A stretch of DNA of 57,653 nucleotides from Terriglobia bacterium. GTDB taxonomy: Bacteria > Acidobacteriota > Terriglobia > 20CM-2-55-15. The notes under the pieces were generated by a model. It was not told the DNA's origin, made no database searches, and was given only the letters and a program-made list of their open reading frames with translations. Within the stretch, counting starts at the first letter, position 1. The number at the start of each line of letters is the position of its first letter. Location: NCBI GenBank assembly GCA_041481485.1, contig JBGPBY010000003.1, forward strand, positions 1 to 57,653. The letters run 5' to 3'. This document shows positions 4,120-29,010 of the stretch, piece after piece. The translations under genes were made by a program, and so were the position numbers.

Positions 4120-4132
4120 GAGCGGAAGCGGT

Positions 4133-6308: not shown

Positions 6309-6362
6309 CAGTGAGCGAACTAGGGTTTGTGAGTACTCGACGAAATCAGCGAAAATCAATTC

Positions 6363-7070: not shown

Positions 7071-7150
7071 TTACGGAGTTCAGAAGACCCTCTCCCCTTT
7101 CTTGAACCTTGACAATTCTTCCTCCAAGGGATGAGAATCTAGCCGTAGGC

Positions 7151-7170
7151 GAACAAAAAGCGAATATAGT
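7151..7170 (+). promoter_or_regulatory. LexA-box-like site adjoining the imuA -10 element
   Basis: GAAC-AAAAAGC-GAAT (7151-7165) resembles the GAAC-N7-GAAC box of Acidobacteria/Alphaproteobacteria; TATAGT at 7165-7170 lies 5 nt before the ATG. Confidence 0.65.
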
Positions 7171-7175
7171 GAGCC

Positions 7176-8246
7176 ATGGCAGCCATCCTTATTAAGCAAT
7201 GGAAATTGGAACCGGGTCTCGTCGGACGAGGTCTCGAAGGATTCCAGAGACGCTCCGCCGTCGAAGTGCAACCGAGCGGTGTCCGCGAACTCGATGCGCT
7301 GCTGAGTGGCGGATTTCCCCGGGGATCTTTGGTGGAATTATGCGGAGATGGTTCTTCCGGCCGTACGAGCCTCGCATTCTCTTTGCTTGCCCAGGCGACC
7401 GAGCGACAGGAGGCCTGTGCGTTCGTTGATGTTTCGGACTCCCTCGATCCGCTATCGCTTGCGGCCGCAGGGGTGGAACTTTCGCGTCTGCTCTGGATTC
7501 GCTGCGGCGAATCGGGGAGCCAGGAACCGGATCTGAGGACGTCTCCCTACTTTGCTGCTGCTGGCAAGGAAACGGAAAAGAGTTTTGGCCTTGAGCCCGA
7601 ACGCAAGAAACCAATGCACGCAAATGGCTGGAAGCACCCGCGCGAATTGATGCGCGGAGTCGAGCACGCGATTCCTATGGTGATGGGAAGCCGGGCATCG
7701 ATTCCAGTGCCAAAGACGGGTTCCGTCGTGGCCCGTTGTGTGGGAGAGCAAGTGGAGCGAGACCGCGAGCCTCCACGCCGTGGAATTCGTCCTCCCAGAC
7801 TTTTGCCGAAACTCGAAAGTGCTCCGATACGCGAAGCGCGATTCCAGGCGAAAAGCACGAAGCCGTGGAAACAACTCGAACAAGCGCTGAAGACGACGGA
7901 CCTGCTTTTACATGGGGGCGGGTGGGGAGTCGTGGTCGTCGATCTCGGAGGAATATCGTGGGTAGATGCGCGACGAATCAATTCGAGCATGTGGTTCCGT
8001 TTCCGGCGCGCGGTCGAAAACACATCGACAACTCTACTTCTGCTCGGAGAGGAATCATGCGCGAAGAGTTGCGCTTCACTGGTTCTCCGCTGTCAGCGGA
8101 AAACGGACAACTGGAATCGCGCGGCGGCAAGAGTTCCTACAGGGGCAGCCACGCTTGAAGGTTTTGAAGTTCAGGGAGAAGTGACTCGTTCGCGAGCGGT
8201 TTCGGGTCCCACCGATTCCGCTCGATGGAAGATACGTACACCATAG
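7176..8246 (+). CDS. imuA: ImuA-like RecA-fold mutagenesis protein
   Basis: ELDALLSGGFPRGSLVEL, degenerate Walker A GSSGRTS; first gene of an imuABC cassette. Confidence 0.85.
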   Translation: MAAILIKQWKLEPGLVGRGLEGFQRRSAVEVQPSGVRELDALLSGGFPRGSLVELCGDGSSGRTSLAFSLLAQATERQEACAFVDVSDSLDPLSLAAAGVELSRLLWIRCGESGSQEPDLRTSPYFAAAGKETEKSFGLEPERKKPMHANGWKHPRELMRGVEHAIPMVMGSRASIPVPKTGSVVARCVGEQVERDREPPRRGIRPPRLLPKLESAPIREARFQAKSTKPWKQLEQALKTTDLLLHGGGWGVVVVDLGGISWVDARRINSSMWFRFRRAVENTSTTLLLLGEESCAKSCASLVLRCQRKTDNWNRAAARVPTGAATLEGFEVQGEVTRSRAVSGPTDSARWKIRTP

Positions 8247-8303
8247 GCCGCTAGAACCTCCGGTTTTGTTTCCCTTTCCTCTACCAAGTTCAGGGGACGT
8301 ACG

Positions 8304-12800: not shown

Positions 12801-13072
12801 TCACCCGTGTGGCAGGATGTGTGATCGCACGGCAGCGTCCGGGAACGGCCAAGGGCTTCGTCTTTTTGAGCCTTGAAGATGAAACGGGAATTTCGAATGT
12901 GATTGTGAATCCCGATCTTTACGAGAAATACCGGAAAGTGATTAACAGGGAAAAGTTTCTACGCGTGGACGGAATTCTGCAGAATCAAGACCACACCATC
13001 TCGATCAAAGCGTCGCAGGTAATGCCCATTTCGATTTCTGCGGCTGAAACACAATCCCACGACTTTCACTAA
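9863..13072 (+). CDS. dnaE2: Error-prone DNA polymerase DnaE2
   Basis: YIELHASSAFSFLEGAS (PHP), QGRGSAANS, PDIDLD, C-terminal SHDFH; TTG start overlaps the imuB stop. Confidence 0.96.
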   Translation: MKYIELHASSAFSFLEGASRPEDLVSRAKELEMPAIALVDRDGVYGAPRFHMAAKTVGIRSHVGAEISVEGFGNRAGLPHWMPNASSPQPVRLTLLVESRAGYQNLCRLITRYKLREKEKGTGTATLREIAEHAEGLVCLTGGAEGVLAASLSSHGYDEARKSVETLMALFGRKNVYVELQRHCDSVEERRNQAAVRLAKSFHLPLLATNGVHYATAAERELMDVFTCIRNHAKLETAGRLLERNDERALRSAAEMKELFSDLPEAIDNTSELSARLGFTLAELGYEFPRYPVSAGETMDSFLRKRTEEGFQNRYGTKRNGELFERAQKQVQRELELIEKLKLAGYFLIVWDIIRFCREQNILVQGRGSAANSAVCYSLGITAVDPVGMELLFERFLSEERGEWPDIDLDLPSGDQREKAIQYVYQRYGQLGAAMTANVITYRDRSAAREVGKVLGFDQETLDQLASVVDSGEWRGPSDNFENHFQQVGLDMNHPRIRKYWELCERIQDLPRHLGQHSGGMVVCQGQLNAVVPLEPASMPGRVVVQWDKDDCADMGIVKVDLLGLGMMAVLEECLELIPKHYNVPIDLAQLPSDDPPVYKTLRKADTVGMFQVESRAQMASLPRNAPVKFYDLVVQVAIIRPGPIVGKMMHPYMRRRQGKESVAYAHPSLEPILKRTLGVPLFQEQLLRIAMVAANFTGGEAEDLRRAMGFKRSEERMKKIEAKLRSGMTQNGFRPETQEEIITQISSFARYGFPESHAASFALIAYASAYLKEYYLAAFTAALLNNQPMGFYSPAVLIQDARLHGLRVRPIDVLQSEWNCTIEHVLRNEKDIPCLRIGFRYVRGMREAAAEKIVSERRKRTFGGIEDLTYRVPELQKAELVTLSEIGALNPLGNGMHRRSALWQVERAARPGGPLLDTIPEQLELSPLRRMTDEERLVADFHGAGLSTGPHPMSYCREALTKQEVKRACDLPRLPDGQFTRVAGCVIARQRPGTAKGFVFLSLEDETGISNVIVNPDLYEKYRKVINREKFLRVDGILQNQDHTISIKASQVMPISISAAETQSHDFH

Positions 13073-13085
13073 TTCCAGCGCAGTC

Positions 13086-14153
13086 CTACTCGAAGAGTAC
13101 CGGCTGAGCGGATGCATTGTCCGTCTCGCGAAAATTGCTGAGCCCAACGCCAACGAGACGAAAGCGTTGTTGCGGGCTAAGTTTCACACGCTGTCGCAAC
13201 GATAGGGCAATGTTCGTCAGTTCTTCACAGGAGGAAGGTGGAAAGCCGGGTGTATGGCTGCGCGTTAGGATTTTGAAGTCACTGGTCTTCAGTTTGAGCA
13301 TCACGGTGTGAGCGATGCGCGACTCGGTCCGTGACGCTGTCCAGGTCTTTTCCGCAAGTCTTCGGATCATGGGCTCCGTTTCTGTCAACGGGACATCTAG
13401 TTCGAACGTATCTTCTGCAGATATGGACTGCGTTGGTCGGTCCGGAACGACTTCGTTGTTATCGACTCCTCGAGCCAACTCGTGGAGACGGACCCCATAG
13501 CGACCGAAGCGACGTTCCAGTGTTGATAAATCGAGCGATCGCAAATCCGCGAGTGTTTGTATTTGCAAGACTTTGAGCTTTTCTTCCGTGACCTTTCCAA
13601 CTCCCGGCAAACAACCCACTGGCAGAGGCAGCAAAAAGGTATCGACTTCTTCGGGCTGGATGACGAACAGTCCATCCGGCTTCTTCCAGTCGGAAGCAAT
13701 CTTGGCGAGGAATTTATTGGGCGCCACACCCGCCGAGGCGGTCAGATTTAGTTCCATGCGAATCTGTTCGCGAATAGTGCGCGCCACTTGCGTAGCTGTT
13801 GGAAGTCCGGTCTTGTTCTCCGAAACATCGAGGTACGCTTCATCGAGAGATAAGGGTTCGATCAGATCGGTGTGCCTCTTGAAGATTTCGCGTACCTGCC
13901 GGGAGACAGCTCTGTAGCGCGGAAAATCCGGCGGCAGGAACACGGCATTGGGACAGAGGCGTTCCGCCCGAACTGCCGGCATTGCGGAACGCACGCCAAA
14001 CTTTCGCGCCTCATACGACGCCGCGCACACCACGGATCGGTTTCCGCGCCACGCGACGACGACGGGGTTGCCGCGCAGTTGCGGATCGTCCCGCTGCTCT
14101 ACCGACGCGTAAAAAGCGTCCATGTCGATATGCACGATTTTGCGCAGGCGCAT
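13086..14153 (-). CDS. dinB: DNA polymerase IV
   Basis: HIDMDAFYASVEQ, SYEARKFGVRSAM, SLDEAYLD, NKFLAKIASD; C-terminal QPVLF. Confidence 0.96.
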   Translation of the reverse strand: MRLRKIVHIDMDAFYASVEQRDDPQLRGNPVVVAWRGNRSVVCAASYEARKFGVRSAMPAVRAERLCPNAVFLPPDFPRYRAVSRQVREIFKRHTDLIEPLSLDEAYLDVSENKTGLPTATQVARTIREQIRMELNLTASAGVAPNKFLAKIASDWKKPDGLFVIQPEEVDTFLLPLPVGCLPGVGKVTEEKLKVLQIQTLADLRSLDLSTLERRFGRYGVRLHELARGVDNNEVVPDRPTQSISAEDTFELDVPLTETEPMIRRLAEKTWTASRTESRIAHTVMLKLKTSDFKILTRSHTPGFPPSSCEELTNIALSLRQRVKLSPQQRFRLVGVGLSNFRETDNASAQPVLFE

Positions 14154-14330: not shown

Positions 14331-17300
14331 ATGGCTGGGTCAGCTTCGCCAAATCCGGACTTCAAAGGGCTCGTTTTAGGGACGATCGAGAAGTTGCGCG
14401 CAAAGCTGCTCGATTTGACGATGGCCAACCGGCTGCTGAACTTCAAACCTTCTGAAAAATCGAAGAGCCACGTGCGGGTCATCGACGAGATTCCTGAGGC
14501 ACTATTTGAAAAGCTAGAGAATGGGAAGGAACTTGAGTTTGCATGGATCGAAGATCCAGATTTGGAACCAACGGATGAGCGTACACGTGAGTTCAGTGAG
14601 GCGGTGAAAATTGGCAAAACCTCCGACACGGACTACCTGGAACAACTGGAGAAGCTTGGAAAACGTCCGTCGCGGAGGCAACTGGCCACGGCTGAACGGG
14701 GGTTGCGGGACAGAGTACGTCTTTCGTTAGGCTTGGCTCCCAGACTCAAGCCATCGGTCGTCGACCGGGCCCGTGAATTGGGATTCGATCCGAACTACGA
14801 TTTGGCATCTGATTCTGAGCATCGCAGTCGTGCGCACGGTGATTCCCGAATTCAGACTCTGCTGTATCGAGAAGCAATGGAGGCCAAGCTTTCGGCAATT
14901 CGAGAAACTGACAAGACGCTTCTCGACGATGCGGGAGTGAACGCATTGTACGCCGTCTTCGGTGCCGTGGAGTGGTTTGAATCGGCTGACTCCGACGTGC
15001 CGATTTTCGCTCCGGTTCTGTTTGTTCCCGTGGAAATTCGGCGAGTTCTGGACGAAGGGGTCTATCACTACGTTCTCGTGGCCCGCGATGACGATATCGA
15101 GGTCAACCAGGCGTTTGGACAACTTATAAGAGAGACTCATTCCATCGAGCTGCCTCCATGGAATCCGGAATCAACGCTGAGTACGTACTTCCGTGATGTC
15201 GAACGTGTCCTGGAATCCCAGCGTCGGTGGCGCCTGCGCCGTTGGGTGACAGTCGGACTGTTCACGTTCGCGAAAATGGCGATGTATCGGGATCTGGAGA
15301 CGAAACGGTGGTCGGAAGCAGGCGGCCTCGAGTCGCACTCCGTATTGAACGAGTTGTTAGCCGGCACGGAGGCAGTGTCAGACGTAACGCTGGCCCCCGA
15401 TTATGAGATCGATTCGCCTGCGATGGCTCAGAAAAACCAGACGCTGGTTACGGACGCAGATTCATCACAACACAGCGCATTGATCGACGTTTCTGAAGGA
15501 AAAAGTCTGGTGATTCAAGGACCGCCAGGAACAGGGAAATCACAGACGATCACGAACATCATTGCTGCCGCGATGAACGAAGGCAAGAGAGTCTTGTTTG
15601 TTGCTGAAAAAATGGCGGCGCTGAAGGTCGTGAAGGATCGTTTGGACAGTTTCGGTCTGGGGGTTTTCTGCCTCGAGGTTCATTCGAACAAGACCAGGAA
15701 AACGGCAGTCCTCAAGTCACTGGAGGAGCGACTAAATCTCTCCGGCTCACTACTCGATGGACGGCAGCTGAGGCAGACGCTGGAGTCCTTTGATCAGACG
15801 CGCAACGAATTGGTCCACTATGCGAACAAGATGAAGGAGGATGTTGGGGAAACAGGTCTTACCGTCCATGAGGTTTTGCGCGGGAATTGTATCCGGACGC
15901 CTTTGGGAGAATCACTACCCCCCGGCTTGCGAAAAGCCCGGACGGTTGAGCCGACGCAAGTGAGCGATTCAACGCGGTCGGAGTTGAAAGACCTAGCGAA
16001 CGACCTGCAATCCGCTGCTTCAAACATAAATCGGTGGGGCGGCTTGATGAATCACCCATGGCGGGGCCTTGAGAATGACGGACTCGACGTATTTCAAGCA
16101 GAAGAACTGCTTTCTGAGCTGACCTCCTGGGATCAGTCCCTTGGAGTGCTAGAAGATGAAATTGCTGCCGCAAACAAGGAAACCAAGTGGGGAATGGAAA
16201 GCACGGCCAAAAGTGCTGAGCGCTTCATTATGGATGTTCTGGCAATTCCAGCTGCAACCGCCACGCTGAATGACGAGCTTATCCGCAAAGGCGCGACCGA
16301 CAAGGGCCTGGGTGAGCTGAAAAGTACCTTCGAAAACGTAAAGAATGTGGACTCTTTATACGAACAATTGATGCATGTTTTCAAGAATCGTGAGTCGCTG
16401 GATGACGCGAAAGTCTCGGAAGTGCAATCGGCGACAGCAGTTGGGCATGAACTACACCTGGAAGAAGTCACCGTTGGAAATATCGCTGTCCTGAATGCTG
16501 AACGTTCCGTCACGGCCAAACAATTGGAAGAAGCAAGTTCGGAACTGCGGTTGTTTGCAGAGCAGTTTGGAATCAAGAGCCCCACAGTTGGCGACGTGGG
16601 AAGCATGATGACTGCGATTGCCCTCTTGTCGGAACTTCCGATAAATCTCCTGGGCCTACGGGACGAAGCCCTGGTCGCAGACGGCTCGTTACAAATTGTC
16701 GAGCGCGGGAGCAAACAGGCTGAAAATATTCGAGCTCTCAAGAGCACGGTCACTGCTGACTTTCGGCTCATTGCACTTCCGTCCATCACGGACATCCGTG
16801 CTGCGGCGGCCACGCTTGAAAATTCAGGATTTCTCGCGCGATGGTTCGGTTCCGAGTATCGGGCGGCCCGGCGGGTATACGACAGTATCGCGCAACCGAA
16901 TGCAGTACAGCGCAAACGGCAGCCTGGACAAGAACTGGATAGATTGGCTCGCTTCATTGAACAAAAGCGAGAACTTGAGAATGACGCGGAACTCCGTCGT
17001 GTGGGCGGAATCTCCTTTCGAGGTGTGGAAACTCAGTGGCAGGAATTACTTGCTGTGGCGCGCTGGGCTTCGAAAGTGCGGCGCGAACTTCCCACGGGGT
17101 CCGTGGGAAACGACCGATGCCGCGAAGCCCTGTTGATCGGAGAAAGAGCGAGGCTCCAAGGGGTCATCGAGCTGTCGAGGAAAGCCGAACGATTGACCGC
17201 ACTAAAACGGTTTTTGGGTCTCGGCGCAACCCTTGAGCAAGATGCTGACTCATTGTGCGTTGTCAGGCAAGCGGCCGCAGTACGCACGGGAGAGCTGAAC

Positions 17301-19493
17301 GCAAAGTTGAGCGCACTCTCGATCAATAACGGGATCACGATGTTGGAATTGGAAACCGTCGCGGCAAAATTGCAATCTTTGAAAGAATCCAAAGACAGGC
17401 TTAGCTCTACTGAATCGATGGAAATTCTACGATTTGCGCAAGAGGGGAAGCACTCGAGTGTTGAGATGCTGGAAGGCACGCTGTCTTTTCTTGACGCCAT
17501 CGGGAAGGTTGCCATACCTCAGCTCGTGCGGACAGAGCTCTACAGTGGAAGTGCGAGGATGGTTTTGGAGCTGCTGACAAGGCACACGGGTGCGTTGACG
17601 GAAGCGCTCAACAAAGCTGCGAACCATAAGAGGCTAGTAAAGGAACTGGGCCGGCTGAACGAACGCGCTTGGACCGGAAGTGATGATTTCGAGGGTGTGA
17701 ATCTAGATTTCCTGCGCAAACGGATCACTCACGCACTTACAAATCCAAACGCGCTCCAGCCGTATCTTGATTTTTTGAGAATCGAGGGCAAGGCGAAAGC
17801 AAGTGCTCTTGAGCCGATTCTGAAGCATCTGGAGGGCAATCCCTTTCCGTACGCGCGACTTGGTGAGGCGTACGATTTTATTTTCTTCCGTTCGTGCGCC
17901 GAATCCATCCTATCCACGGATCCGAAACTGAAATCACACTCGGGCGTTACGCATGACCAATTGCGCAAGCGCTATCAACAGCTAGATCGAAAAGTGATGG
18001 ACCTGAGACGGCTGGAGATCGGGCGCAAACTGATGGACGTGCCGATACCACAGGGAAACAACCGCGGACGCGCTTCGGAGATCACCGAATTAGCTCTGAT
18101 TCGACGGCAGATCGGACTGCAACGAAGACACGCCGCGCTTCGCGATTTATTTAAGAGGGCCGGTCAAGCAACGCAAGCGTTGAAGCCCTGCTTCATGATG
18201 AGCCCAATGTCGGTTGCGCAATTTCTTGATCCCGGAGGTCTGCGCTTCGATTTGGTGGTAATGGATGAGGCCTCGCAAATACGACCTGAAGATGCGCTTG
18301 GAGCTATAGCTCGTGGCCGACAACTCGTCGTTGTGGGTGATCCGAAGCAGCTTCCTCCGACATCCTTCTTCGAGAAAGTGGATCGTGACGAGACAGTGGA
18401 CGACAATTCCGAAGAGGCCGATATCCACGATCTGACATCGCAGGAGTCCGTACTCGATTTGGCGCGTGGACCGTATCAACCCGTTCGTCAACTCCGCTGG
18501 CACTATAGGTCGCAACACGAGAATTTAATTGCGTTCTCAAATAACGAATTCTACGACAACACGTTAATCGTATTTCCGTCGCCTAAAGGTGAAGATCCCG
18601 ACTACGGCGTGCGTCTTGTACAAGTTGACGGCGTTTATGAAGCGGGATTGAACCGTTTGGAAGCGGAAGCCATTACCGAAGCAGCTCAGAAATTCATGAA
18701 GAACTTTCCCAAACGCTCTCTTGGGATTGTGGCAATGAACAAGCCACAACAGGAGTTGATTCAAAAGATGATGGACGAGCTATTTGCAACGGATGTAGAG
18801 GCTGAGAGCTATCGCGTACGTTGGGAGCATTCGCTAGAGTCTGTTTTTGTCAAGAATCTAGAAAACGTGCAGGGTGATGAGCGCGACGTCATTTTCATTT
18901 CGACGGTATACGGAAAGGATGCGACAGGAAACTTTTTTCAACGACTGGGCCCCATCAATGGCGCACATGGTCACAGGCGATTGAACGTTTTGTTTACGCG
19001 CGCGAAGCAGCAAGTGTGTTTGTTCACCTCGATGAGGGCGAGCGATTTGAGAGTGGAGGAATCCTCGCGCTGGGGCGTCAAGGCATTGAAAAACTATCTG
19101 GCCTACGCGCAAAGCGGTCATCTGGATGCCGGCGAAATAACCGGAAGAGAACCCGACAGTGAATTCGAACGTTGGGTGATGGGAATGTTGGAGGAATCAG
19201 GATACGAAGTCGTGCCACAGCTGGGCGTGGCGGGATACTTCATCGATCTTGCGGTACGGCACCCGGATCAAAGAGGCTCGTTCATTTTGGGCGTGGAATG
19301 TGACGGAGCCATGTATCACTCGGCGAGGTCGGTGCGGGACCGCGATCGCCTGCGGCAAGAGGTTCTTGAGCGGCTCAGATGGAACATCTACAGGATCTGG
19401 TCGACGGACTGGTTCCGAAATCCTCGAGCCGAGTTTCAGAAGCTTTCGACTGCGCTTGAGGCGCTGCGCACCTCTAAGGCGGGTCCCAATTAA
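14331..19493 (+). CDS. DUF4011-SF1 helicase-Vsr-like nuclease (Hhe-like defence protein)
   Basis: KLLDLTMANRLLNF, QGPPGTGKSQT, DEASQ, GDPKQLPP, VQGDERD and C-terminal IDLAV...GVECDG...RIWSTDW; 1720 aa. Confidence 0.9.
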   Translation: MAGSASPNPDFKGLVLGTIEKLRAKLLDLTMANRLLNFKPSEKSKSHVRVIDEIPEALFEKLENGKELEFAWIEDPDLEPTDERTREFSEAVKIGKTSDTDYLEQLEKLGKRPSRRQLATAERGLRDRVRLSLGLAPRLKPSVVDRARELGFDPNYDLASDSEHRSRAHGDSRIQTLLYREAMEAKLSAIRETDKTLLDDAGVNALYAVFGAVEWFESADSDVPIFAPVLFVPVEIRRVLDEGVYHYVLVARDDDIEVNQAFGQLIRETHSIELPPWNPESTLSTYFRDVERVLESQRRWRLRRWVTVGLFTFAKMAMYRDLETKRWSEAGGLESHSVLNELLAGTEAVSDVTLAPDYEIDSPAMAQKNQTLVTDADSSQHSALIDVSEGKSLVIQGPPGTGKSQTITNIIAAAMNEGKRVLFVAEKMAALKVVKDRLDSFGLGVFCLEVHSNKTRKTAVLKSLEERLNLSGSLLDGRQLRQTLESFDQTRNELVHYANKMKEDVGETGLTVHEVLRGNCIRTPLGESLPPGLRKARTVEPTQVSDSTRSELKDLANDLQSAASNINRWGGLMNHPWRGLENDGLDVFQAEELLSELTSWDQSLGVLEDEIAAANKETKWGMESTAKSAERFIMDVLAIPAATATLNDELIRKGATDKGLGELKSTFENVKNVDSLYEQLMHVFKNRESLDDAKVSEVQSATAVGHELHLEEVTVGNIAVLNAERSVTAKQLEEASSELRLFAEQFGIKSPTVGDVGSMMTAIALLSELPINLLGLRDEALVADGSLQIVERGSKQAENIRALKSTVTADFRLIALPSITDIRAAAATLENSGFLARWFGSEYRAARRVYDSIAQPNAVQRKRQPGQELDRLARFIEQKRELENDAELRRVGGISFRGVETQWQELLAVARWASKVRRELPTGSVGNDRCREALLIGERARLQGVIELSRKAERLTALKRFLGLGATLEQDADSLCVVRQAAAVRTGELNAKLSALSINNGITMLELETVAAKLQSLKESKDRLSSTESMEILRFAQEGKHSSVEMLEGTLSFLDAIGKVAIPQLVRTELYSGSARMVLELLTRHTGALTEALNKAANHKRLVKELGRLNERAWTGSDDFEGVNLDFLRKRITHALTNPNALQPYLDFLRIEGKAKASALEPILKHLEGNPFPYARLGEAYDFIFFRSCAESILSTDPKLKSHSGVTHDQLRKRYQQLDRKVMDLRRLEIGRKLMDVPIPQGNNRGRASEITELALIRRQIGLQRRHAALRDLFKRAGQATQALKPCFMMSPMSVAQFLDPGGLRFDLVVMDEASQIRPEDALGAIARGRQLVVVGDPKQLPPTSFFEKVDRDETVDDNSEEADIHDLTSQESVLDLARGPYQPVRQLRWHYRSQHENLIAFSNNEFYDNTLIVFPSPKGEDPDYGVRLVQVDGVYEAGLNRLEAEAITEAAQKFMKNFPKRSLGIVAMNKPQQELIQKMMDELFATDVEAESYRVRWEHSLESVFVKNLENVQGDERDVIFISTVYGKDATGNFFQRLGPINGAHGHRRLNVLFTRAKQQVCLFTSMRASDLRVEESSRWGVKALKNYLAYAQSGHLDAGEITGREPDSEFERWVMGMLEESGYEVVPQLGVAGYFIDLAVRHPDQRGSFILGVECDGAMYHSARSVRDRDRLRQEVLERLRWNIYRIWSTDWFRNPRAEFQKLSTALEALRTSKAGPN

Positions 19494-19574
19494 CACTGCG
19501 CATATTCGACCGATCTCCGTATCTAACAGAATATAGGCCGCTTAGAGGGTCAATCTAAACAATTCGGATTGTAT

Positions 19575-19603
19575 TTGCTATTCGCGAATCGCGAATATAG
19601 AAT
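19575..19603 (+). promoter_or_regulatory. Sigma70 promoter with palindromic operator in the spacer
   Basis: TTGCTA-N17-TAGAAT; perfect inverted repeat TATTCGCGA-A-TCGCGAATA (19579-19597). Confidence 0.7.
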
Positions 19604-20819: not shown

Positions 20820-20866
20820 GCTTAAAGTCCTTCGAGTGGGATTTCCTCGGTGACGCGGCCCACGTC

Positions 20867-20891
20867 GGCCGCGGTTTGGAAAACCGTGGTC
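20867..20891 (+). repeat. Dispersed hairpin, copy B
   Basis: GGCCGCGGTTT-GGA-AAACCGTGGTC; core GCGGTTTGGAAAACCG at 20871-20886. Confidence 0.8.
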
Positions 20892-21061
20892 CGTGCCGTG
20901 ATATCAATCGTACCGGGCGAGTAGTCTCAACTCCTGATTGAGCTCTTCACTTTACCGCTGGATTGAAGCCTTCCGTTATATCTGCGGAACTTGACAAGGC
21001 ACATACTGGGGCATAGTCTTCCGCTCACTCTCCTTCCTGCTTGAATGTACCGGAGGTATCC

Positions 21062-24000
21062 ATGAAGGCCCCCGCCACTTTTCGATCCTTCGTTCTTTGT
21101 GTCGCGTTGTCCATCTTCGCAGTCGCCCGATGCCAGGGCCAAGAACCTGCTGGGTCCCCAGCTGCGCCAAAAGCGACTGCTGCGGGGGCAGCCTCTGAAT
21201 CTCCATGCGCAAAGCCCGTCACCGCGCCTGCATCTTCGGTTTCGGAAGAAAGTGTTTGCCTGTTGGTATCGGGAGACTTGTCGAGGTCGCGCGACGGGCG
21301 AGATGTCGTTGCGCCCGTGGGAGGGTTGGGTGACGGGAAGACGAAGGGCGTGTTGCATGAAATGCTTAGCCTTGAAAGCCAGTCCACAGTGCCTACGTTG
21401 CGATTGTTGACTGGGAACAATCTGGGCCGCGCTATTAAATCCGGCGCGCTTTCTTCTGCCGGCGGCGGTTTGCCGAAGTCAAATCTAGCAACTACGATCG
21501 TGGCGGGTTCGGAGACCATTGTGGTCACGGCGGAAAATTTTGTCGAAGAAAAGAAGATGACCGCTTTTGAAAGGAAAGTCGAAGAACTAAGAGCTTTATA
21601 TGCGGCTGAAGGCCTCTCCCTCGATGAGCTTAAATGCGGTACCGCCGCTAAGGATGCGCAAACGAAGCTGGAAAGAGCGGGTTCATCGCCGACGCAGAAA
21701 GAGGTCGACGCTGCTTGGAAGGTTCTGGAACAGTGCGATGGCGACCTGTTTACCTGGCAGCTTCAGAAGTATTTTGACGCCGTCGCGATAGGTCCGGGTG
21801 ATTTCAACTACAGCCGGGAGACTACCTTAATCCAGCAGCTACGCCATTTTCCATTCTTGTCGGCTAATTTGTTCATGGCCAACGAAGAACCTGGACCCAA
21901 AGTCCCCAACAAGAAAGACCCACGTCTGCTGGTTGATTCTCAGGAGATTTTCCCGGGAAGTTCGGTGACCTTTGACGTCGGCGCTGATCCTGCGGACGCC
22001 GTTTGTGAGGTCATGGTCAAAGGAACCAAAAGCGAACGAGAGATGGCTCCCGGGGCTGGCATCCGCGGAGGAGATCCGTCATGGGATAATAAGGCCACCT
22101 TTCGGTTCCAGTTTCTTTCCGATACCGAGTGCCAGCAGAAGAGCGTGCGGCCGAAAAACGGACACGTCGAACCGAGCAAAGGCCGAAGCGTGGTTTATTC
22201 GTACACGGCAAAAGGACATTTGCGAAAGGCTTTCTTTCCGTTTGATGATGCTGTGACGACCGAGGAGACGAGCAGAGTCGTAACGCTGAAGTTCCCTGTG
22301 CCTCTAAGTCCCGCGAGCAGCTATCAGTTGGAAATCAAATACCGCGCCGGTTCCGCACCACAGACGAAGACCATAAAGTTTTACACCTACGAACTGTTCA
22401 CGATTACCTATTCTTGGAACGAGCCGCCAACCGACCCAAGGGCGACTGAGGTAATGGCGAAACACCGGGAAACAGCCCTAAGTGCCGATTCGGTGCCGGA
22501 GAAAAACAAGGCTGTCTCGCTATCTGGTCCGACGGGTCGACCACTGGAAACGGGACTTCCACAAAAGCGTACGAGTTGGCTCGGATACGACATTCCTATT
22601 CTGTGCACAGTCTCGGAGGATGCGAGTCGAGTGCAACTTGGAAATGTGTGCACGATTTCCGTCTTCGATGAGAAGAAGCTGACCGAGATGCCGCGAACAC
22701 TGACTGGGAAAAAGTCAGACAACGCGGAACTCATCAACCGGCTCCGGGCGGAACCGATGACGGAAGCTCTCGACTATTGGAATGCTGAGTTGAATTGGTT
22801 GCAGAAGAAGAAAGTGATTGAGGAACTCGCAGCTTCGCCCGGGGGCAGTCTGGGAAAAGAAATCGCGGAGCTTTGCCCGCTCCTTCAAAATGCTAAGAAG
22901 TGTCTACCAGAAGTGAATGGCGAGGAAATTTCGATTCATTTGGATGTTGCAGAATTGGACTCTTTGCTGAGCAAGCGGCAAAAGAATCCAGCCATCGTGC
23001 TGCTAGCCCAAACGGACGCTGCGGGCTTGGACGGTTTGGCTGGCAAGAACTCGAAATATGCGGTGGTTGTGGGAGGCTCCGGCGCGGGCAGTTCAGAACC
23101 TGCTGCATCGAGTTCCGGGGTGCACGGCCCGCTGCGTATCGTGCCGCTGGATTTTGGCAAGAGCGTGGACCAGCTCAAACTCGAACTGGTTTCCAATAGC
23201 CCGTGGCAGGTCAAGAACGCAAGTTACGCTCGTGACGATGGCGCGCAGCATTCCGGAGTTCCGGGAATAGCATTTCCGGTTCTTTTCGCAACGGCGGATG
23301 ACGATAGCTTGCGTCCGTGCTGCGCTGGAATGGATCAACTAGCACTTCTCTCTGAATGGGTGCTGGCATCGGATCTTAATGGGGCGGTGGGTTCACGTCT
23401 GCCTTCGCAGGATGTGTTGAAAGCGGATAACGACCGAACGTTTGACGTTTTGATGGAAGTAATGCGCGAGAAACATCGCGCCGAAGTGGCGCTTCTCCCC
23501 ACCGATTTTGTTGATCCTCTGCCACTTCGGTGGCTCCGTTCCGTGCGCTGGCTGGGTTGCCACAATGGAAATTCAGCGTTCAAATGCTCTGACAAGGACG
23601 GCAAAAGAGACGGCGGTCATTTTACGGTCGACTTGGCAACGGCACCTTTGGAACTGTTGCAATCGATTCCCGGGATTGATCCGGCGACGGCCATGTTAAT
23701 CCGGAAAAACAGGGACAAAATTCGGTCGAGGTCCGATATCGGGTCCGGCGGGGTTTTGGGCGCAGGGGCGGGTTTGGGCGATTCGGCATACGCGTGGGCC
23801 AAGTGGTTTGTCCACGGCCCGGACGATGCCACGCCAGATCCCGTTCCTTATATTGACGAGCGAGCTTTTGTAGATCTGGTTTTGCGCCGATTGATTTTTG
23901 TCAATCATGATCCCCGAGGCGTCATTTTGACGGGAGATTTAGCGAAGACTCTCTACACAAAGGCTGCTGGGGGTTCGAAACTGCAAGGGTTTTCAAAAGA

Positions 24001-25396
24001 CGGTCTGAATGTTTTTACGCATCAGGTGCGGCCGATCGAGGGGACACTCCCCGTGACCGTCGTGACATCGACTCCCGTGGCGCAATTGCAGGGTCCGTAT
24101 CCGGATGCCCTGGATGATCCGAGCGTTCTTCGGCAGAAGGTGAACGACAAACCGAAGGACAAGCTGAAGGACAAGGAGGAGGACAAGCACAAGGACATCG
24201 GGCAGGAATTCCGAGCCGAGGTTTTGGACAAATCGCTCATTTCAAAAGTACCCGTGGATACGGACCAGTATCCCGACGTGAAGAAATGGACTGCAAATCG
24301 AGACGCCAAACCGTACTGGCTATTGTCGCTGCAACAGCTCGGGTTTTCGTTCAATCAAATCTCGAATTCGAGTAACTTCAAACCCATCTCAAACGAGCCA
24401 GCAACGCAAGCTAAGAGCCAGCGAATCATTTCGATAGGCCCGCGTTTCTCAGCGGGGCTGTATTCTCCAAAGCTCGAATGGATAAACACGGTGGGGATTG
24501 ACTATCAGACCAATCAGATTTCGCCGAACGATATCAATCCGGTGCTTGACCAATATCGTCTTCGAACAGAACTTGACTGGTACTGGCAACAGCATCGGGG
24601 CAACGTGAGTTTCCCATTTTATGTCGCGGGTGAATTCGATTCTCAATTCGCATTGCCGCTCGGAGTTATCACGCTCACGGATTTGGCGAACAGCACATTA
24701 GTTAAGACCAAGACACTGCCGTTGCCCCTGACGTTTCCAGCAGTGCGGCAGCGCGACCTAATTGGAGAGGTCGGCATCCTTGCCACGAACCGCACCAGAA
24801 CAATTTGGTTTCGATTTGGTTTTTCGCCGGACCACAATTTCAATCGACTGGACTCGGTCAGTTTGACGAGCGGCAGCATCATTGTTCAGGCGACGCCCGG
24901 GAAGATCAGCGATGCCGTGAATGCCGCCAATCTGACCGCCTTCAACGCCGGTCTGACGCAGCCATTCCAACCCGGGAAAATCCCGTCCAGCCTCAATGTG
25001 GTTAGCGTGACTACACCGGCGCTGGCGTTCGGGTACAACTATCAGAAGGATTTTCAACTTCCGAATAACAAGAACAAGAAAATTACGATCAAGAGCGATT
25101 CCAAAGAATGGAATTTCTATTTCCGCCAGGCAAATGACAATTCCTCGCAGCCAAGATTCAGAATCTGGATTGAAAACTCGGTGAAGATTCCGATATGGGG
25201 GAATTTAAGTTTGGCTCCTGGATTTGACATGTTCGTGTACCGAAGCAAGCCGGACACGCTTGGGACGAATCCAGCGAAAGCCATGACATTCACAAGCTGG
25301 CGGCCGACCCTCTCCTTAAACTACTCGTTTGACTGGAAACCGGCAGCGATGTCGGCAGGTGAGAGTTTCAAATTCGAAAACGCCAAGCCGCAATAG
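21062..25396 (+). CDS. Large exported protein: degenerate 5'-nucleotidase-like domains + ComEA-like HhH + C-terminal OM beta-barrel
   Basis: GGAGG RBS and signal peptide; FDAVAIGPGDF and FPFLSANL; VDLATAPLELLQSIPGIDPATA; amphipathic beta-strands ending LSLNYSFDWK; 1444 aa. Confidence 0.7.
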   Translation: MKAPATFRSFVLCVALSIFAVARCQGQEPAGSPAAPKATAAGAASESPCAKPVTAPASSVSEESVCLLVSGDLSRSRDGRDVVAPVGGLGDGKTKGVLHEMLSLESQSTVPTLRLLTGNNLGRAIKSGALSSAGGGLPKSNLATTIVAGSETIVVTAENFVEEKKMTAFERKVEELRALYAAEGLSLDELKCGTAAKDAQTKLERAGSSPTQKEVDAAWKVLEQCDGDLFTWQLQKYFDAVAIGPGDFNYSRETTLIQQLRHFPFLSANLFMANEEPGPKVPNKKDPRLLVDSQEIFPGSSVTFDVGADPADAVCEVMVKGTKSEREMAPGAGIRGGDPSWDNKATFRFQFLSDTECQQKSVRPKNGHVEPSKGRSVVYSYTAKGHLRKAFFPFDDAVTTEETSRVVTLKFPVPLSPASSYQLEIKYRAGSAPQTKTIKFYTYELFTITYSWNEPPTDPRATEVMAKHRETALSADSVPEKNKAVSLSGPTGRPLETGLPQKRTSWLGYDIPILCTVSEDASRVQLGNVCTISVFDEKKLTEMPRTLTGKKSDNAELINRLRAEPMTEALDYWNAELNWLQKKKVIEELAASPGGSLGKEIAELCPLLQNAKKCLPEVNGEEISIHLDVAELDSLLSKRQKNPAIVLLAQTDAAGLDGLAGKNSKYAVVVGGSGAGSSEPAASSSGVHGPLRIVPLDFGKSVDQLKLELVSNSPWQVKNASYARDDGAQHSGVPGIAFPVLFATADDDSLRPCCAGMDQLALLSEWVLASDLNGAVGSRLPSQDVLKADNDRTFDVLMEVMREKHRAEVALLPTDFVDPLPLRWLRSVRWLGCHNGNSAFKCSDKDGKRDGGHFTVDLATAPLELLQSIPGIDPATAMLIRKNRDKIRSRSDIGSGGVLGAGAGLGDSAYAWAKWFVHGPDDATPDPVPYIDERAFVDLVLRRLIFVNHDPRGVILTGDLAKTLYTKAAGGSKLQGFSKDGLNVFTHQVRPIEGTLPVTVVTSTPVAQLQGPYPDALDDPSVLRQKVNDKPKDKLKDKEEDKHKDIGQEFRAEVLDKSLISKVPVDTDQYPDVKKWTANRDAKPYWLLSLQQLGFSFNQISNSSNFKPISNEPATQAKSQRIISIGPRFSAGLYSPKLEWINTVGIDYQTNQISPNDINPVLDQYRLRTELDWYWQQHRGNVSFPFYVAGEFDSQFALPLGVITLTDLANSTLVKTKTLPLPLTFPAVRQRDLIGEVGILATNRTRTIWFRFGFSPDHNFNRLDSVSLTSGSIIVQATPGKISDAVNAANLTAFNAGLTQPFQPGKIPSSLNVVSVTTPALAFGYNYQKDFQLPNNKNKKITIKSDSKEWNFYFRQANDNSSQPRFRIWIENSVKIPIWGNLSLAPGFDMFVYRSKPDTLGTNPAKAMTFTSWRPTLSLNYSFDWKPAAMSAGESFKFENAKPQ
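24143..24196 (+). repeat. 12-bp-period intragenic tandem repeat encoding (K/E/N)DKx
   Basis: aacgacaaaccg aaggacaagctg aaggacaaggag gaggacaagcac aaggac. Confidence 0.75.
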
Positions 25397-25484
25397 ACGG
25401 GCGGGCAGGAAGCGGAACGGTCGGTGAGTTCCCGGAGTCCAAGCCCTTGTTCTGTAGCGAGACTGGATGCAGGAGCAGTGTGCA

Positions 25485-26513
25485 ATGCCAGAGGGCGAAT
25501 CCAAGCGGCTGACAGTCATTGTCGGGGCAGGTGCTTCATACGACTGTGGAGACAGCGAAACAGCCGCCATGATCAACGAGGCTTACCGCCCTCCTCTTGC
25601 GAAGGACATTCTTGGGCGGCAGTTTGACGGGATCTTGAATCGCTATCCAGCGGTGACTGCGCGATTGGATGAACTACGCACCAAGCTGGCGAACGGTGGA
25701 GACTTCGAGGAGATATTTCGCGGGTTGTTGGAATCTGCTGAGCACCATCAGAACTTCTGGCCTTTACAGCTTCCTTTGTATTTGAGAGAGCTTTTGTGGA
25801 CGATCAGCCTTGAGTATATCCGCGGTAGTTCGAAGTTTGACACGCTCGTACGGCGCGTATTGGAATCACGGTTCGAAGAAGTATTGTTCCTGAATTTGAA
25901 TTACGATCTTTTTCTTGAGGACGCACTTTCGACCTACGACCATCACGAATTCAATTCTCTGAGTTCGTATATTCCGCAGAATAAAAAGTGGCGATATGTG
26001 AAGCCACACGGCTCGGTCAATTGGGGCAGAATTGTGGACAACTGTCGGGGCGACAGTTCAGGAAGATTCTTTCCCAGCCGCCTTCAAGAGATGCCAATCT
26101 TTTCAAGCGAGCTTCAGGTCGTAATGTGGAACAGGCATTCACACGACTTCTATATCCCGGGAGGTGGTCCGTCTGGCTATCTTTACCCGCAACTGGTCGT
26201 CCCAACCGACAGGCCGAAGAGCTTTGTATGTCCGCAAGAACATGCAGATCAGGCACGAGCGTTCGTTCAGAATTGCCAGCATTTTCTTATCGTTGGATTC
26301 AGCGGCCGCGATCAAGATGTGCTCGGGCTGCTTCAGGAGGTGCCAGCTGGCAGCCAGTTGGTGATCGTAAGCAAGGGCGATGCCAAGGAGATTGAGACAA
26401 GAATAGGTGCCGCAATCTCGGCTTCCCCAGCCAAGAAGCTGACGATCCACTCGCACGACATCGGTTTTTCGAGATTCGTCGCGAGCAGTACACTCGACAA
26501 TCTAGTCTCTTAA
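25485..26513 (+). CDS. SIR2-like (SIR2_2) domain protein
   Basis: IVGAGAS, NLNYD, VKPHGSVNW and IVGFS motifs; AGGAG RBS. Confidence 0.85.
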   Translation: MPEGESKRLTVIVGAGASYDCGDSETAAMINEAYRPPLAKDILGRQFDGILNRYPAVTARLDELRTKLANGGDFEEIFRGLLESAEHHQNFWPLQLPLYLRELLWTISLEYIRGSSKFDTLVRRVLESRFEEVLFLNLNYDLFLEDALSTYDHHEFNSLSSYIPQNKKWRYVKPHGSVNWGRIVDNCRGDSSGRFFPSRLQEMPIFSSELQVVMWNRHSHDFYIPGGGPSGYLYPQLVVPTDRPKSFVCPQEHADQARAFVQNCQHFLIVGFSGRDQDVLGLLQEVPAGSQLVIVSKGDAKEIETRIGAAISASPAKKLTIHSHDIGFSRFVASSTLDNLVS

Positions 26514-26684
26514 GGAATGCTTGAGAGGCCGGTTGAGTAGCATCACCAAGAATTTCCGCGCGACGGGACGAGATCAGACTCGCAGATGATAGCCTTCCTG
26601 AGTCGTTCGGCGATGTGGTCGAAGCTAACTCGATGGTCGAGTAAGGTATGGAAATTCTTCCTTAGTCTATTTGGCAAGGACTCC

Positions 26685-27518
26685 ATGGAAACCAAGACTT
26701 ATCGGTTGGGCTACCATCTCACGGTTTTTCTCGATGTTCAGGGCCAGCGAGAGAAGTTCAAGGAGCTGCGCCTGCCGAAATCGTCGGAGGAGCATGTCGC
26801 GGTTCAGGAAGTGTTGAAAGATACGGCTGGATTTGTAGTTGGCCTTCGCTCCGCATTTCGGAACAATTTCGAAGCTTTCGAGGCTGGGATTTCACGTAAA
26901 AAAGGCGTGAGCCTGCAGCCCAGGTTTGTTGGGTTTTCGGACTCGTTTGTCGTATCGGTGCCCCTCGCACCAGTGAATGGCGATATGGAGCCGATGGTCA
27001 GGATTTTCTCGGCTCTGTCCTCGGCCGCGACAATCATGATGACCGCCATGGCGAGCAAACATGCCGTTCGGGGTGGGATTGAAGTTGGGCTTGGAGTCGA
27101 AATTGGACCGGAGGAAATTTACGGTACGGCGCTGGGCGATGCGTATGAATTGGAATCAAAGCGTGCAGAGTATCCACGTGTCCTAATTGGGAAGACCTTT
27201 TGGGATTACCTCGGCGCAGCCGGGAAAGAATTCAGTAGCAGGAAATCGGACGCGTTATGCGCGATGGTGAAGAGAATCATTGCTTTGACGGCCATAGAGG
27301 GCGGGGAAAGATATCTCGATTATCTCGGTGACGTGATGGCGCGGCTTGCAAAGCCGGGAGAGGGGCAGATCATGGTGCAGCCGGGGTACGATTTCATCGT
27401 TAGTGAGCACGAGAGATTTGTTGCCGCAAAGAATGAGAAGTTGGCTGAGCGCTATCGGAAACTGAGAGACTACTACGAGTCTAGGCTGGCGCTTTGGGGC
27501 CTAACCAAGAAAAGTTAA
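26685..27518 (+). CDS. Class III nucleotidyl-cyclase-like protein
   Basis: VFLDVQG (first Asp), FSDS (second Asp), VRGGIEVG, IYGTALGDAYELESKRAEYPRVLI. Start is 26685 (AAGGA RBS) or 26586. Confidence 0.65.
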   Translation: METKTYRLGYHLTVFLDVQGQREKFKELRLPKSSEEHVAVQEVLKDTAGFVVGLRSAFRNNFEAFEAGISRKKGVSLQPRFVGFSDSFVVSVPLAPVNGDMEPMVRIFSALSSAATIMMTAMASKHAVRGGIEVGLGVEIGPEEIYGTALGDAYELESKRAEYPRVLIGKTFWDYLGAAGKEFSSRKSDALCAMVKRIIALTAIEGGERYLDYLGDVMARLAKPGEGQIMVQPGYDFIVSEHERFVAAKNEKLAERYRKLRDYYESRLALWGLTKKS

Positions 27519-27820
27519 GAACCCATTGTGCCCGATCAACCCTTCAGACACCCGCAGCCGCTCACCTATTTTGCAGGAAGCGAGTTGCTTTGGTGTTTTC
27601 GGAACTGCTCGAGGACCGCGATTCAGGTGCAGCGGTTCCAGTTTTGATTGTCGCGGATACACGTTTCCTAAATAGCGGACGTCGACTCACCTGAAGTCTT
27701 GACTCGCTCCCCGAGCGGCTGAAGAATTCGAAAATCCGTTAGTCCACCCGCCTCTTTGAGGGTTGTTGCACGGTGGAATTGACTCAATGCCATACAAAGC
27801 TGATATACTCCGCCGCGAAT

Positions 27821-28846
27821 ATGAGTGCCATTGACGAAGGACAAACTCCGAAAGAAGGAACAGCCAAGAACCGAGACCGATGGCTGATTGCCGCGTTGTG
27901 TATCTCGGGATTCATTCTCGTCTCTGCAGCACTGTATCTGGCACCACAGACCTCTTCTGAAGGCCACCAGAAATACTGGGAGATGGGAGCCCATCTCTTA
28001 CGAGACTTAGGAATTGCTCTCGTAGTCGCGTCTGCACTTGCGTTTGCCGTGGACGAATATTTGAAGGAAAAGCTTGTAAGCTCGGTTGCCAGAGAGGTTT
28101 CGCATCATGTCGCGAAGAATACTTCCAAATACGTATTCGGTTACCTTGTACCGGACGATCTAAAGGAGGAACTTCTTGAATTGATGCGGCCTGCTGCCTT
28201 GCGGCGCAATTTTAGGCTGCACCTTTCACTCGATTACCTAGGCGATAAGCATCCCAATTTTGTTCGAGTGACGACAAAAGTTAGCTTCATCTTGGAGAAT
28301 CTGAAGGATCAGGAACTCTCCTACCGTCATTCATTGAAGATGACGAGCATGTTTGCGGATATGGAAGCTCCCGAGATTGTGCGGTTCGCATGCCGAAAAG
28401 GATCTCGGGATGAATATAAGTATGATTATCGGGGCACGAATTCGATGCTAGCCGCAAACGATGAACGATTAACCGTATCCAGATCGTCAGACAACCGGGA
28501 ACTGATCGTGCGTCGCATAGTAACCATTCCCCCATTTTCGAAGGAATTTGAGTTTCGAACGGAGTCCAGCGAGATTATGGAGGTTCCCTATGCGGATGTA
28601 CTGAGTTTCACTTATGCGACCTCGATTGTCGAAGTGGAAGCACATTATCCCAAAGACATGGACGTGGTTATCGAATTTGGCAAAGGGAGAGCGGTTGAGA
28701 TATACACGGATCATCCCAGCCGTCCAACCATCTGGCGTTATACAGGTGTTTGCCTGGCTGGTCAGCACATAAAATATGATTTCAGGCGTAGAGCCGAGCT
28801 ATTACCTGGAACTGATTCTGAGCTTGCGGATCATTCACCCTCATAG
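27821..28846 (+). CDS. 2TM membrane protein with beta-rich C-terminal domain
   Basis: Two N-terminal hydrophobic helices (WLIAALCISGFILVSAALYL; LGIALVVASALAFAV); own promoter-like TTGACT...TGATATACT upstream. Confidence 0.75.
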   Translation: MSAIDEGQTPKEGTAKNRDRWLIAALCISGFILVSAALYLAPQTSSEGHQKYWEMGAHLLRDLGIALVVASALAFAVDEYLKEKLVSSVAREVSHHVAKNTSKYVFGYLVPDDLKEELLELMRPAALRRNFRLHLSLDYLGDKHPNFVRVTTKVSFILENLKDQELSYRHSLKMTSMFADMEAPEIVRFACRKGSRDEYKYDYRGTNSMLAANDERLTVSRSSDNRELIVRRIVTIPPFSKEFEFRTESSEIMEVPYADVLSFTYATSIVEVEAHYPKDMDVVIEFGKGRAVEIYTDHPSRPTIWRYTGVCLAGQHIKYDFRRRAELLPGTDSELADHSPS

Positions 28847-28983
28847 GGAATATCAAAGTTCTATTACACCTGACAGAGCTATATGTGTATGGAATAAAAT
28901 TGTTGGACCAACAGCCAAAGAATCCGTTGGTTCCAATTGCAACACTCGAACACTCCCAAAAGCAGAGGCAGCGCCATCCGGGT

Positions 28984-29010
28984 CGGCGGCGGTTTGGAAA
29001 ACCGCTGCCG
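28984..29010 (+). repeat. Dispersed hairpin, copy C
   Basis: CGGCGGCGGTTT-GGA-AAACCGCTGCCG, 12-bp stem with one G-T pair. Confidence 0.8.

Follow-up and report, generated by a model that had tools for sequence, protein, structure and literature searches.

A putative outer-membrane-anchored pseudoenzyme of the 5′-nucleotidase family with a helix-hairpin-helix insertion, encoded on an acidobacterial genomic island

What could be the function of a large exported protein that joins a nucleotidase fold with a replaced active site, a putative nucleic-acid-binding motif and a predicted outer-membrane β-barrel in a single chain? This question is raised by a gene in a 57,653-nucleotide stretch of DNA from a Terriglobia bacterium (Acidobacteriota; assembly GCA_041481485.1, contig JBGPBY010000003.1, positions 1 to 57,653 of the forward strand), which we call the window. 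The gene encodes a protein of 1444 residues, here designated P0001. We rate P0001 as a pseudoenzyme of the 5′-nucleotidase (5′-NT) family in which both the insert and the anchor are new. The reading that we favour, while giving it slightly less than an even chance, is that of an outer-membrane-anchored, non-catalytic binder of nucleic acids or nucleotides. An original prediction, made by reading the letters of the DNA, had described the protein in similar terms. All the strings that it quoted (LLTGNN, GPGDF, LLAQ, VVGG, VMREKHRAEVALL and VDLATAPLELLQSIPGIDPATAMLI) are found in the 1444-residue open reading frame (ORF), and the check that it proposed, AlphaFold modelling followed by Foldseek, returned both the calcineurin-like 5′-NT fold and the barrel. 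Here, we describe the parts of the protein, weigh what it might do, and place the gene in its genomic surroundings.

A 5′-nucleotidase-like body with replaced motifs

No family at threshold is found for P0001 in Pfam, NCBIfam or PADLOC (in the last, Csn2 alone appears at E 0.028, which is noise), and searches of the PDB by single sequence and of the ESM Atlas by whole protein returned nothing usable. A word-indexed search of 5.8 billion proteins retrieved nine further members with 50–88% identity, all of them unnamed metagenome proteins. A HMMER profile of residues 61–1200, run over 1.84 billion representatives, added five distant full-length relatives (P0011–P0014 and P0017; 1158–1335 residues, 24–29% identity) and some N-terminal fragments. 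The architecture is thereby known from about twenty environmental sequences in all, and two metagenome loci were recovered: L002, with a full-length gene, and L003, with a partial one. So far, the family is restricted to uncultured soil and sediment bacteria. Two pattern scans of 185,579 species genomes gave no member, and the same holds for 60 related genomes and for 400 genomes of the phylum (two of which have helix-hairpin-helix (HhH) matches of ComEA size); plasmids (tblastn) and viral contigs also yielded no relative, no phage collection having been searched; these negatives mean that nothing was found in the collections searched and are not proof of absence. The component folds are known and their combination is absent from the libraries searched, so the architecture that the original prediction failed to recognise is indeed one that no named family in Pfam, NCBIfam, PADLOC or the PDB covers. 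Likewise, the titles and abstracts of the literature searched describe no fusion of an autotransporter or barrel with an HhH or a nucleotidase.

The roughly 1000 residues preceding the barrel appear, from structural models and profile comparisons, to be a 5′-NT homologue whose N-domain is present along with at least the beginning of the C-domain. Residues 58–1030 were modelled with AlphaFold2 from a 17-row alignment; the model reaches a moderate predicted local distance difference test (pLDDT) score of 61.7 and a predicted template modelling (pTM) score of 0.55. Its low-confidence stretches are ~127–163, 449–509 and 942–1030; the last, where the ligand pocket of a C-domain would be sought, has a pLDDT below 50. 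When this model was compared with the PDB by Foldseek, YfkN ranked first (E 5e-4), followed by CpdB, CD73, UshA and other 5′-nucleotidases. VIA-align, run on the best 1000 chains from Foldseek, superimposes the model on UshA (1ho5) with Z 18.4 and a root-mean-square deviation (rmsd) of 3.2 Å over 257 aligned residues at 17% identity. This alignment spans positions 2–680 of the model and 28–333 of the UshA chain, which is essentially the entire UshA N-domain. All 50 matches listed belong to the 5′-NT family (UshA, NadN, CD73, SoxB, YfkN, CpdB and kin). A BFVD fold search with the N-terminal part gave no match at E ≤ 1e-3.

Profile comparison points the same way. The family profile was aligned by hhalign with a 5′-NT profile of 14 sequences, consisting of UshA from E. 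coli K-12 and 13 true 5′-nucleotidase ORFs from genomes of the same class. Residues 621–816 match UshA 185–408 (score 50.4, E 9e-5) and residues 237–275 match UshA 108–147 (score 39.5, E 0.002). The six control profiles, of which one was reversed and five had shuffled columns, scored 13.9–19.9. A third collinear match, of residues 984–1026 to UshA 477–518, scored at the level of the controls (19.2) and is discounted. The match at 621–816 extends across the linker between the two domains and reaches the beginning of the 5′-NT C-domain, the site of VMREKHRAEVALL, and within it DRTFDVLMEVMREKHRAEVALLP pairs with UshA ~380–405. A single-sequence hhalign run against UshA recovered the motif III stretch alone, and segment-wise runs with motifs I–II and with residues 780–1030 gave nothing above noise. 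Pfam Metallophos (PF00149) and 5_nucleotid_C (PF02872) match neither P0001 (E ≤ 0.1) nor the nine members scanned (E ≤ 10), and genome scans with both models gave no match at the locus. The UshA/5′-NT fold of the original prediction is thus borne out by the structural matches and by hhalign scores above those of the controls.

The active-site motifs are gone. In UshA, motifs I to V, which supply the ligands of the two metals and the catalytic His-Asp pair, read VLHTNDHHGHF, LLLSGGDINTG, AIGNHEFD, IAATHMGH and MIVGGHSQ. The target family has, in the same order, LLVSGDLSR, LLTGNNLGR, AIG[PE]GDFN, LLAQTD (LLAHAS in P0011 alone) and VVGGSGAG or unrelated residues. Motifs III, IV and V are positioned by hhalign, which pairs UshA N116, H117 and D120 with P245, G246 and N249, H217 with Q650, H252 with S673 and Q254 with A675; motifs I and II are positioned by order and predicted strands only. 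All five motifs are replaced in every aligned member, which confirms the predicted replacement of the metal ligands, and the sole surviving histidine lies in motif IV of P0011, a distant relative. G244, G246, D247 and N249 are invariant across relatives down to 24% identity, and GNNLG is nearly so. Because the substituting residues are nearly invariant, the old cleft must still be under selection.

Relative to UshA, CD73, NadN, YfkN, CpdB and SoxB, the target thus shares the N-domain fold (Z 17–18.4, ~250–265 residues aligned), collinear motifs, profile homology up to the start of the C-domain, and export. It differs from them by four large insertions, by an HhH inside the C-domain-like part, by the replaced metal and catalytic residues, and by its β-barrel anchor; 5′-NT family members are otherwise soluble or anchored by a lipid, by glycosylphosphatidylinositol or through LPXTG. 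For the Ig-like part listed among the insertions (Table 1), the Pfam scan also gave weak matches to Big_5 in three of nine members.

The putative HhH insertion and the predicted C-terminal barrel

The 5′-NT-like body appears to be interrupted by a ComEA-type HhH module. Pfam HHH_3 matches P0001 at residues 855–887 with 15.5 bits (E 0.019; cut-off 27) and gives sub-threshold matches in six of nine members scanned, the best at 22.5 bits. HHH_5 also appears below threshold, and these two are the only such Pfam signals. About 50 multi-HhH ComEA-like proteins match the family profile at the HhH positions (~770–835) alone, with E down to 1e-17 and reciprocally, and proteins with SLBB and HHH_3 repeats are among the library proteins that the family profile retrieves. 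In the PDB, the same profile finds the ComEA-related 2duy (E 0.005) and ComEA 8dfk (E 0.07). The ComEA-like HhH of the original prediction is supported by these matches, as a putative module with a sub-threshold Pfam score. The module follows the first C-domain-like elements, and so appears to be an insertion into the 5′-NT C-domain-like region. The target resembles ComEA in its putative HHH_3-type HhH, in reciprocal profile matches to ComEA-like proteins and in matches to ComEA chains in the PDB. Unlike in ComEA, the HhH is a single module within 1444 residues, lacks an accompanying SLBB domain, scores below cut-off and has a hairpin reading PGID, where the usual form is GIG.

The C-terminal part is predicted to be an outer-membrane β-barrel. 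A structural model of residues 1031–1444 (pLDDT 77, pTM 0.69) is nearly all β, and Foldseek finds 88 PDB matches at E ≤ 1e-3, in which all leading rows are outer-membrane barrels: the autotransporter barrels BrkA and EstA (E 2e-6), then OmpT, AaaA, FapF and NalP. An independent VIA search over 48,161 chains is likewise led by outer-membrane barrels throughout, namely Tsx (Z 14.9), VhGalP (14.0), NanC (13.9), AaaA (13.4) and OMPLA (13.2), with KdgM (12.9), EstA (12.1), FapF (11.8) and NalP (11.6) lower down. As scores less than one Z unit apart count as ties, no special meaning attaches to Tsx being first. We take the barrels matched by VIA (Tsx, NanC/KdgM, autotransporter translocators and others) to be 12-stranded. 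In the DSSP string of the model, 12 strands can be counted when two of the hairpins are read as long and bulged (14 are possible); the turns are short at one end of the barrel and the loops long at the opposite end. The barrel is preceded by a charged linker with a short helix (positions 43–52 of the model, 10 residues), and a 12-residue insertion in this linker is found only in the window copy. A word-based search for the same barrel, free-standing or on other passengers, returned nothing beyond fragments and proteins of its own family, and may have missed distant ones. The host assembly has 10 Omp85-family matches, from which it follows that the host has an outer membrane. Judging by the model, the barrel would be inserted there, in line with the C-terminal barrel of the original prediction.

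Export is predicted from the N-terminus. The most hydrophobic 12-mer of the entire protein, and its only strongly hydrophobic segment, lies at residues 10–21, and the N-terminus is kept among the homologues in the alignment (MK.PA...LCVALS...VARC.GQ), both as expected for the signal peptide that had been predicted. A lipoprotein N-terminus with a lipobox at Cys24 is ruled out, as this cysteine is missing in L002 and P0008; an ordinary signal peptide is therefore predicted. Past the signal peptide there are 14 cysteines in sequence-local pairs and none in the barrel. We count this pattern in support, as it would fit an exported protein in an oxidising setting.

Possible roles at the cell envelope

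Together, the loss of the dimetal and catalytic residues, the HhH and the barrel make 'binds rather than hydrolyses' the natural reading. In this scheme, the protein would be exported by the Sec pathway and then anchored in the outer membrane by its C-terminal barrel of ~12 strands. Its body would be a 5′-NT homologue without dimetal ligands and without the catalytic His-Asp pair that has gained an Ig-like insertion and an HhH. The HhH would hold the phosphate backbone of a nucleic acid without cutting it, and a nucleotide or the phosphorylated end of a DNA molecule would sit, unhydrolysed, in the old nucleotide cleft. DNA or nucleotides might thereby be kept at the outer membrane. Ligand binding, the lack of catalysis, the orientation in the membrane and the biological role are all things that we infer for this protein. 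An elaborated version would be an envelope trap for DNA ends, in which the cleft holds the terminal 5′-phosphorylated nucleotide while the HhH clamps the adjoining backbone. Such a trap would catch DNA by its leading end as it crosses the envelope. It might exclude phage or plasmid DNA, as a single-gene island defence, or draw DNA into the cell with no need for a type IV pilus and secretin; we consider it decidedly unlikely.

Several points weigh against the binder. A common fold, known here from models and profiles, does not show a function. The model of the N-terminal part is only moderate, as its scores above and the poorly modelled stretch 942–1030 make clear. The near-invariance of GNNLGR and G[PE]GDFN could reflect an altered chemistry instead of its absence. 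HHH_3 stays under the Pfam cut-off in all nine members scanned, and the ESM Atlas look-alikes of residues 780–1030 are HHH_3 or type II secretion system (T2SS) protein K families, with scores below 0.9; since they include T2SS protein K, the HhH motif need not bind DNA. From its sequence, DNA binding by the HhH is likely, not assured. Display of the module on the surface faces points of its own: PF03797 is unmatched in the protein and has no matches in the host genome, the only helix predicted ahead of the barrel has 10 residues, the chain continues for 20 residues past the last strand, and the longest loop (~1103–1118, from the strand list) is nearly invariant. In addition, both UshA and ComEA are periplasmic in diderms.

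On which side of the membrane the binding module lies is the next matter. Signal peptide, large passenger, linker and C-terminal barrel follow one another as in type Va autotransporters, which makes surface display somewhat more likely than a periplasmic location. Besides this domain order, the Foldseek ranking argues for display, and EstA and AaaA are precedents for globular passengers. Compared with the type Va proteins (EstA 3kvn, AaaA 9oqa; NalP, BrkA, AIDA-I, Hbp), the target shares the overall layout, and differs by having no PF03797 match, no predicted long linker helix, a C-terminal tail, and a barrel that is not found on any other passenger. By this analogy, we give an even chance to a binding module on the cell surface, where it might act as a receptor for extracellular DNA or as an adhesin. 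A module in the periplasm is possible, if on the doubtful side, and any other orientation is unlikely.

The original prediction had also raised an uptake channel and a sensor of extracellular or injected DNA as possible roles. If the module faced the periplasm, the barrel could be an open channel of the Tsx/KdgM/NanC type for a small solute or polymer, below which the dead nucleotidase and the HhH would capture incoming nucleotides, oligonucleotides or DNA, as in a ComEA-like uptake ratchet. The best VIA rows are indeed channels (Tsx, VhGalP, NanC and KdgM; Z 12.9–14.9, rmsd 3.2–3.8), no long pore-spanning helix is predicted, and a flexible charged linker lies ahead of the barrel. However, the VIA rows are tied within one Z unit, with AaaA (the longest alignment, 262 residues) and EstA close behind, and Foldseek ranks autotransporters first. 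The channels themselves are free-standing barrels of ~200–250 residues with 6–9% identity to the target barrel and no match at the sequence level. The host genome already has six small canonical HHH_3 ORFs, and we know of no 12-stranded barrel that passes DNA. We regard this uptake role as rather unlikely. A residual enzymatic role is very unlikely in our view: the protein would then be a divergent phosphoesterase with a non-histidine site (D72, N119/N120, D247, N249, Q650), using another metal or none, that processes extracellular DNA or nucleotides at the outer membrane, for example in phosphate scavenging. The replacing residues are polar and nearly invariant over relatives at 24% identity, and the domain is under purifying selection (dN/dS, the ratio of non-synonymous to synonymous substitution rates, of 0.15). 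Yet every histidine in motifs I, III, IV and V has been replaced, and so have motif II's bridging Asp and the catalytic pair of His and Asp; characterised superfamily members require these residues. Pfam Metallophos is unmatched even at E ≤ 10.

Defence or exclusion would be another use of an envelope protein on an island: it might act against phage or plasmid DNA on its way in, for instance by catching the leading end, alone or as a sensor for the SIR2-like genes. On its island, which has an integrase, the target is flanked by PDC-M21A/B and a SIR2-like gene, with an Hhe/ProA-like helicase close by. The setting of L002 is also of a mobile or defence type (integrase fragment, HipBA), and the distribution is sporadic, with members in none of the 60 related and none of the 400 phylum genomes. 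On the other hand, no PADLOC model matched, the gene is not followed by a SIR2 homologue in L002 or L003, conservation stops at the stop codon, no relative is found in viral contigs (phage collections lay outside the search), and an island location is by itself weak evidence. We regard a defence role as unlikely and continue to favour the non-catalytic binder.

If the non-catalytic binder is the true reading, a housekeeping periplasmic enzyme fold would have been recast as a ligand binder with a DNA-binding insert and set on a barrel. This would represent a new anchoring mode for a 5′-NT-family protein and a new candidate for the retention of DNA or nucleotides at the diderm envelope, touching on the binding of extracellular DNA, its uptake and the exclusion of foreign DNA. 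With one gene, its own putative promoter and separable domains, it offers a testable case. Its general importance is uncertain, because the family is small, so far known only from uncultured soil and sediment bacteria, and located on mobile islands.

The gene and its genomic island

The gene is real and constrained, and its function has been retained. Against the L002 copy, which is 79% identical, dN/dS is 0.133 over the whole gene (Nei-Gojobori). The barrel (1085–1424) is the most conserved part (0.048), followed by the HhH (851–916; 0.059) and residues 917–1024 (0.066). The two parts of the metallophosphatase-like domain have values of 0.147 (61–300) and 0.162 (510–730), and the highest values are those of the Ig-like part (300–445; 0.251) and the poorly modelled stretch 449–509 (0.276).

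Table 1. Features of the P0001 gene and protein, in order along the window
Feature	Residues	Window positions	Strand	Basis
Promoter-like site: TTGACA (20991–20996), 17-nucleotide spacer, TAGTCT (21014–21019)		20991..21019	+	Sequence and window/L002 alignment; putative
Shine-Dalgarno-like GGAGG, 5 nucleotides 5′ of the ATG		21052..21056	+	Sequence; GGAGG also kept in L002
Coding sequence of P0001	1444 plus stop	21062..25396	+	ATG at 21062, stop at 25394–25396; ORF read
Signal peptide	~1–25	21062..21136	+	Hydrophobicity maximum and alignment; cleavage site predicted
5′-NT-type metallophosphatase-like domain	~61–730	21242..23251	+	Model, Foldseek, VIA, hhalign, motif comparison
Insertion in this domain: loop and three helices	~127–237			Model
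Insertion in this domain: β-rich, Ig-like part	~300–445			Model
Insertion in this domain: low-confidence stretch	~449–509			Model
Insertion in this domain: helices	~566–615			Model
5′-NT C-domain-like region, split by the HhH module	~783–1024	23408..24133	+	Only the start, 783–816, supported
ComEA-type HhH module; first HhH clear, second degenerate and putative	~851–916	23612..23809	+	Profiles, PDB match
Charged K/D/E-rich linker and short helix	~1025–1084	24134..24313	+	Alignment, composition, model pLDDT 28–71
Predicted outer-membrane β-barrel, probably 12 strands, no Cys	~1085–1424	24314..25333	+	Model, Foldseek, VIA
Tail of 20 residues past the last strand		25334..25393	+	pLDDT 34–53; conserved ...ENAKPQ end

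DNA likeness between the window and L002 runs from ~90 nucleotides 5′ of the ATG to the stop codon, with none beyond, and the promoter-like site falls within the sole upstream stretch that the two have in common. As the shared DNA consists of this promoter-like region and the gene alone, the travelling unit would be the promoter plus the gene. A consensus promoter scan does not list the site, because its second hexamer matches at three of six bases. Between the target gene and the SIR2-like gene, no terminator-like site was found, and the RNA folding of 25385–25490 is no better than that of shuffled sequences (z +1.16). We propose that the target travels on mobile islands as a single-gene module that is complete in itself, with a putative promoter of its own.

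The downstream genes are not part of this module in the other loci. In L002, a divergent ABC transporter pair lies 5′ of the gene and HipB/HipA 3′ of it; in L003, a convergent Peptidase_S58 gene lies 3′. No homologues of the SIR2-like protein, of the two proteins encoded after it or of PDC-M21 were found in L002 or L003 by tblastn. The downstream neighbours thus differ in both of the other loci and the likeness ends at the stop codon, which leaves the proposed partnership with the SIR2-like genes unsupported. Nor was homology evidence found for the 'cyclase' that the original prediction had placed downstream, in the two genes after the SIR2-like gene. The neighbours of L002 at 1461–4811 (minus strand) and 10266–11890 (plus strand) comprise a protein of 815 residues in which an ABC-2 type permease is fused to a PHB-depolymerase-like esterase, together with an ABC ATPase, an integrase that is truncated, and HipB/HipA. 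The Peptidase_S58 gene of L003 (3740–4481, minus strand) is present as two overlapping ORFs covering profile positions 1–45 and 154–243, possibly owing to a frameshift or to a cut at the contig end.

From the left, the window starts with a tRNA-Ser gene (294–387, minus strand). Positions 421–14153 then encode an integrase, a RepB-type primase, ParB, a SRAP peptidase, a set of an ImuA-like RecA-fold protein, an ImuB-like Y-family protein and a DnaE2-like polymerase, and a DinB-like polymerase; judging by these genes, this part would be a translesion/mutagenesis cassette on an integrative element. It is followed (14331–19493) by a 1720-residue DUF4011 helicase-nuclease with a C-terminal MTES_1575 nuclease domain, which scores 1454 bits against Hhe and 1121 bits against ProA. 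These scores are below the NCBI cut-offs (2000 and 1500, respectively), so by these thresholds the protein belongs to neither family, although it has kinship with both. Next come PDC-M21A/B, the target, the SIR2-like gene and two unnamed genes. With the Hhe/ProA-like helicase, PDC-M21A/B and the SIR2-like gene flanking the target, the defence-island setting of the original prediction stands. Positions 25467–28846 encode the SIR2_2-like protein (34.4 bits) and then proteins of 310 and 357 residues without a family. The 310-residue protein has relatives at 32–35% identity in three of 400 other genomes of the phylum, and within ~1.5 kb on each side of these no homologue of the SIR2-like or the 357-residue protein was found.

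A repeat of ~20–23 nucleotides, with the core GGC[G/C]GCGGTTTGGAAAACCG and holding the palindrome CGGTTT..AAACCG, occurs in three copies in the entire host assembly (7.26 Mb, 756 contigs), all of them in the window: 122–144 (minus strand), 20864–20886 (plus strand) and 28982–29004 (plus strand). The inverted copy lies near the tRNA-Ser end, the second between PDC-M21B and the target, and the third 40 nucleotides inside the right border; the latter two bracket the target and the three genes downstream of it. The left and right copies have some further likeness over ~70 nucleotides. The repeat may be a recombination or protein-binding site.

Contigs of four DNA runs measure 229–965 nucleotides among the rows listed and are mostly identical to the window; they offer no independent look at what lies next to the target gene. 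Right of ~29044, contigs from two of these runs (X6 and X9) match the window with few differences, while their left part is unrelated. This break and the climb in G+C content from ~0.52 to 0.60 near 29 kb fit a right border of the island. At 19571–19603, loose ends are seen in contigs of runs X7 and X8 to the left and to the right of the junction between the Hhe-like gene and PDC-M21A, which suggests that this junction differs in other genomes.

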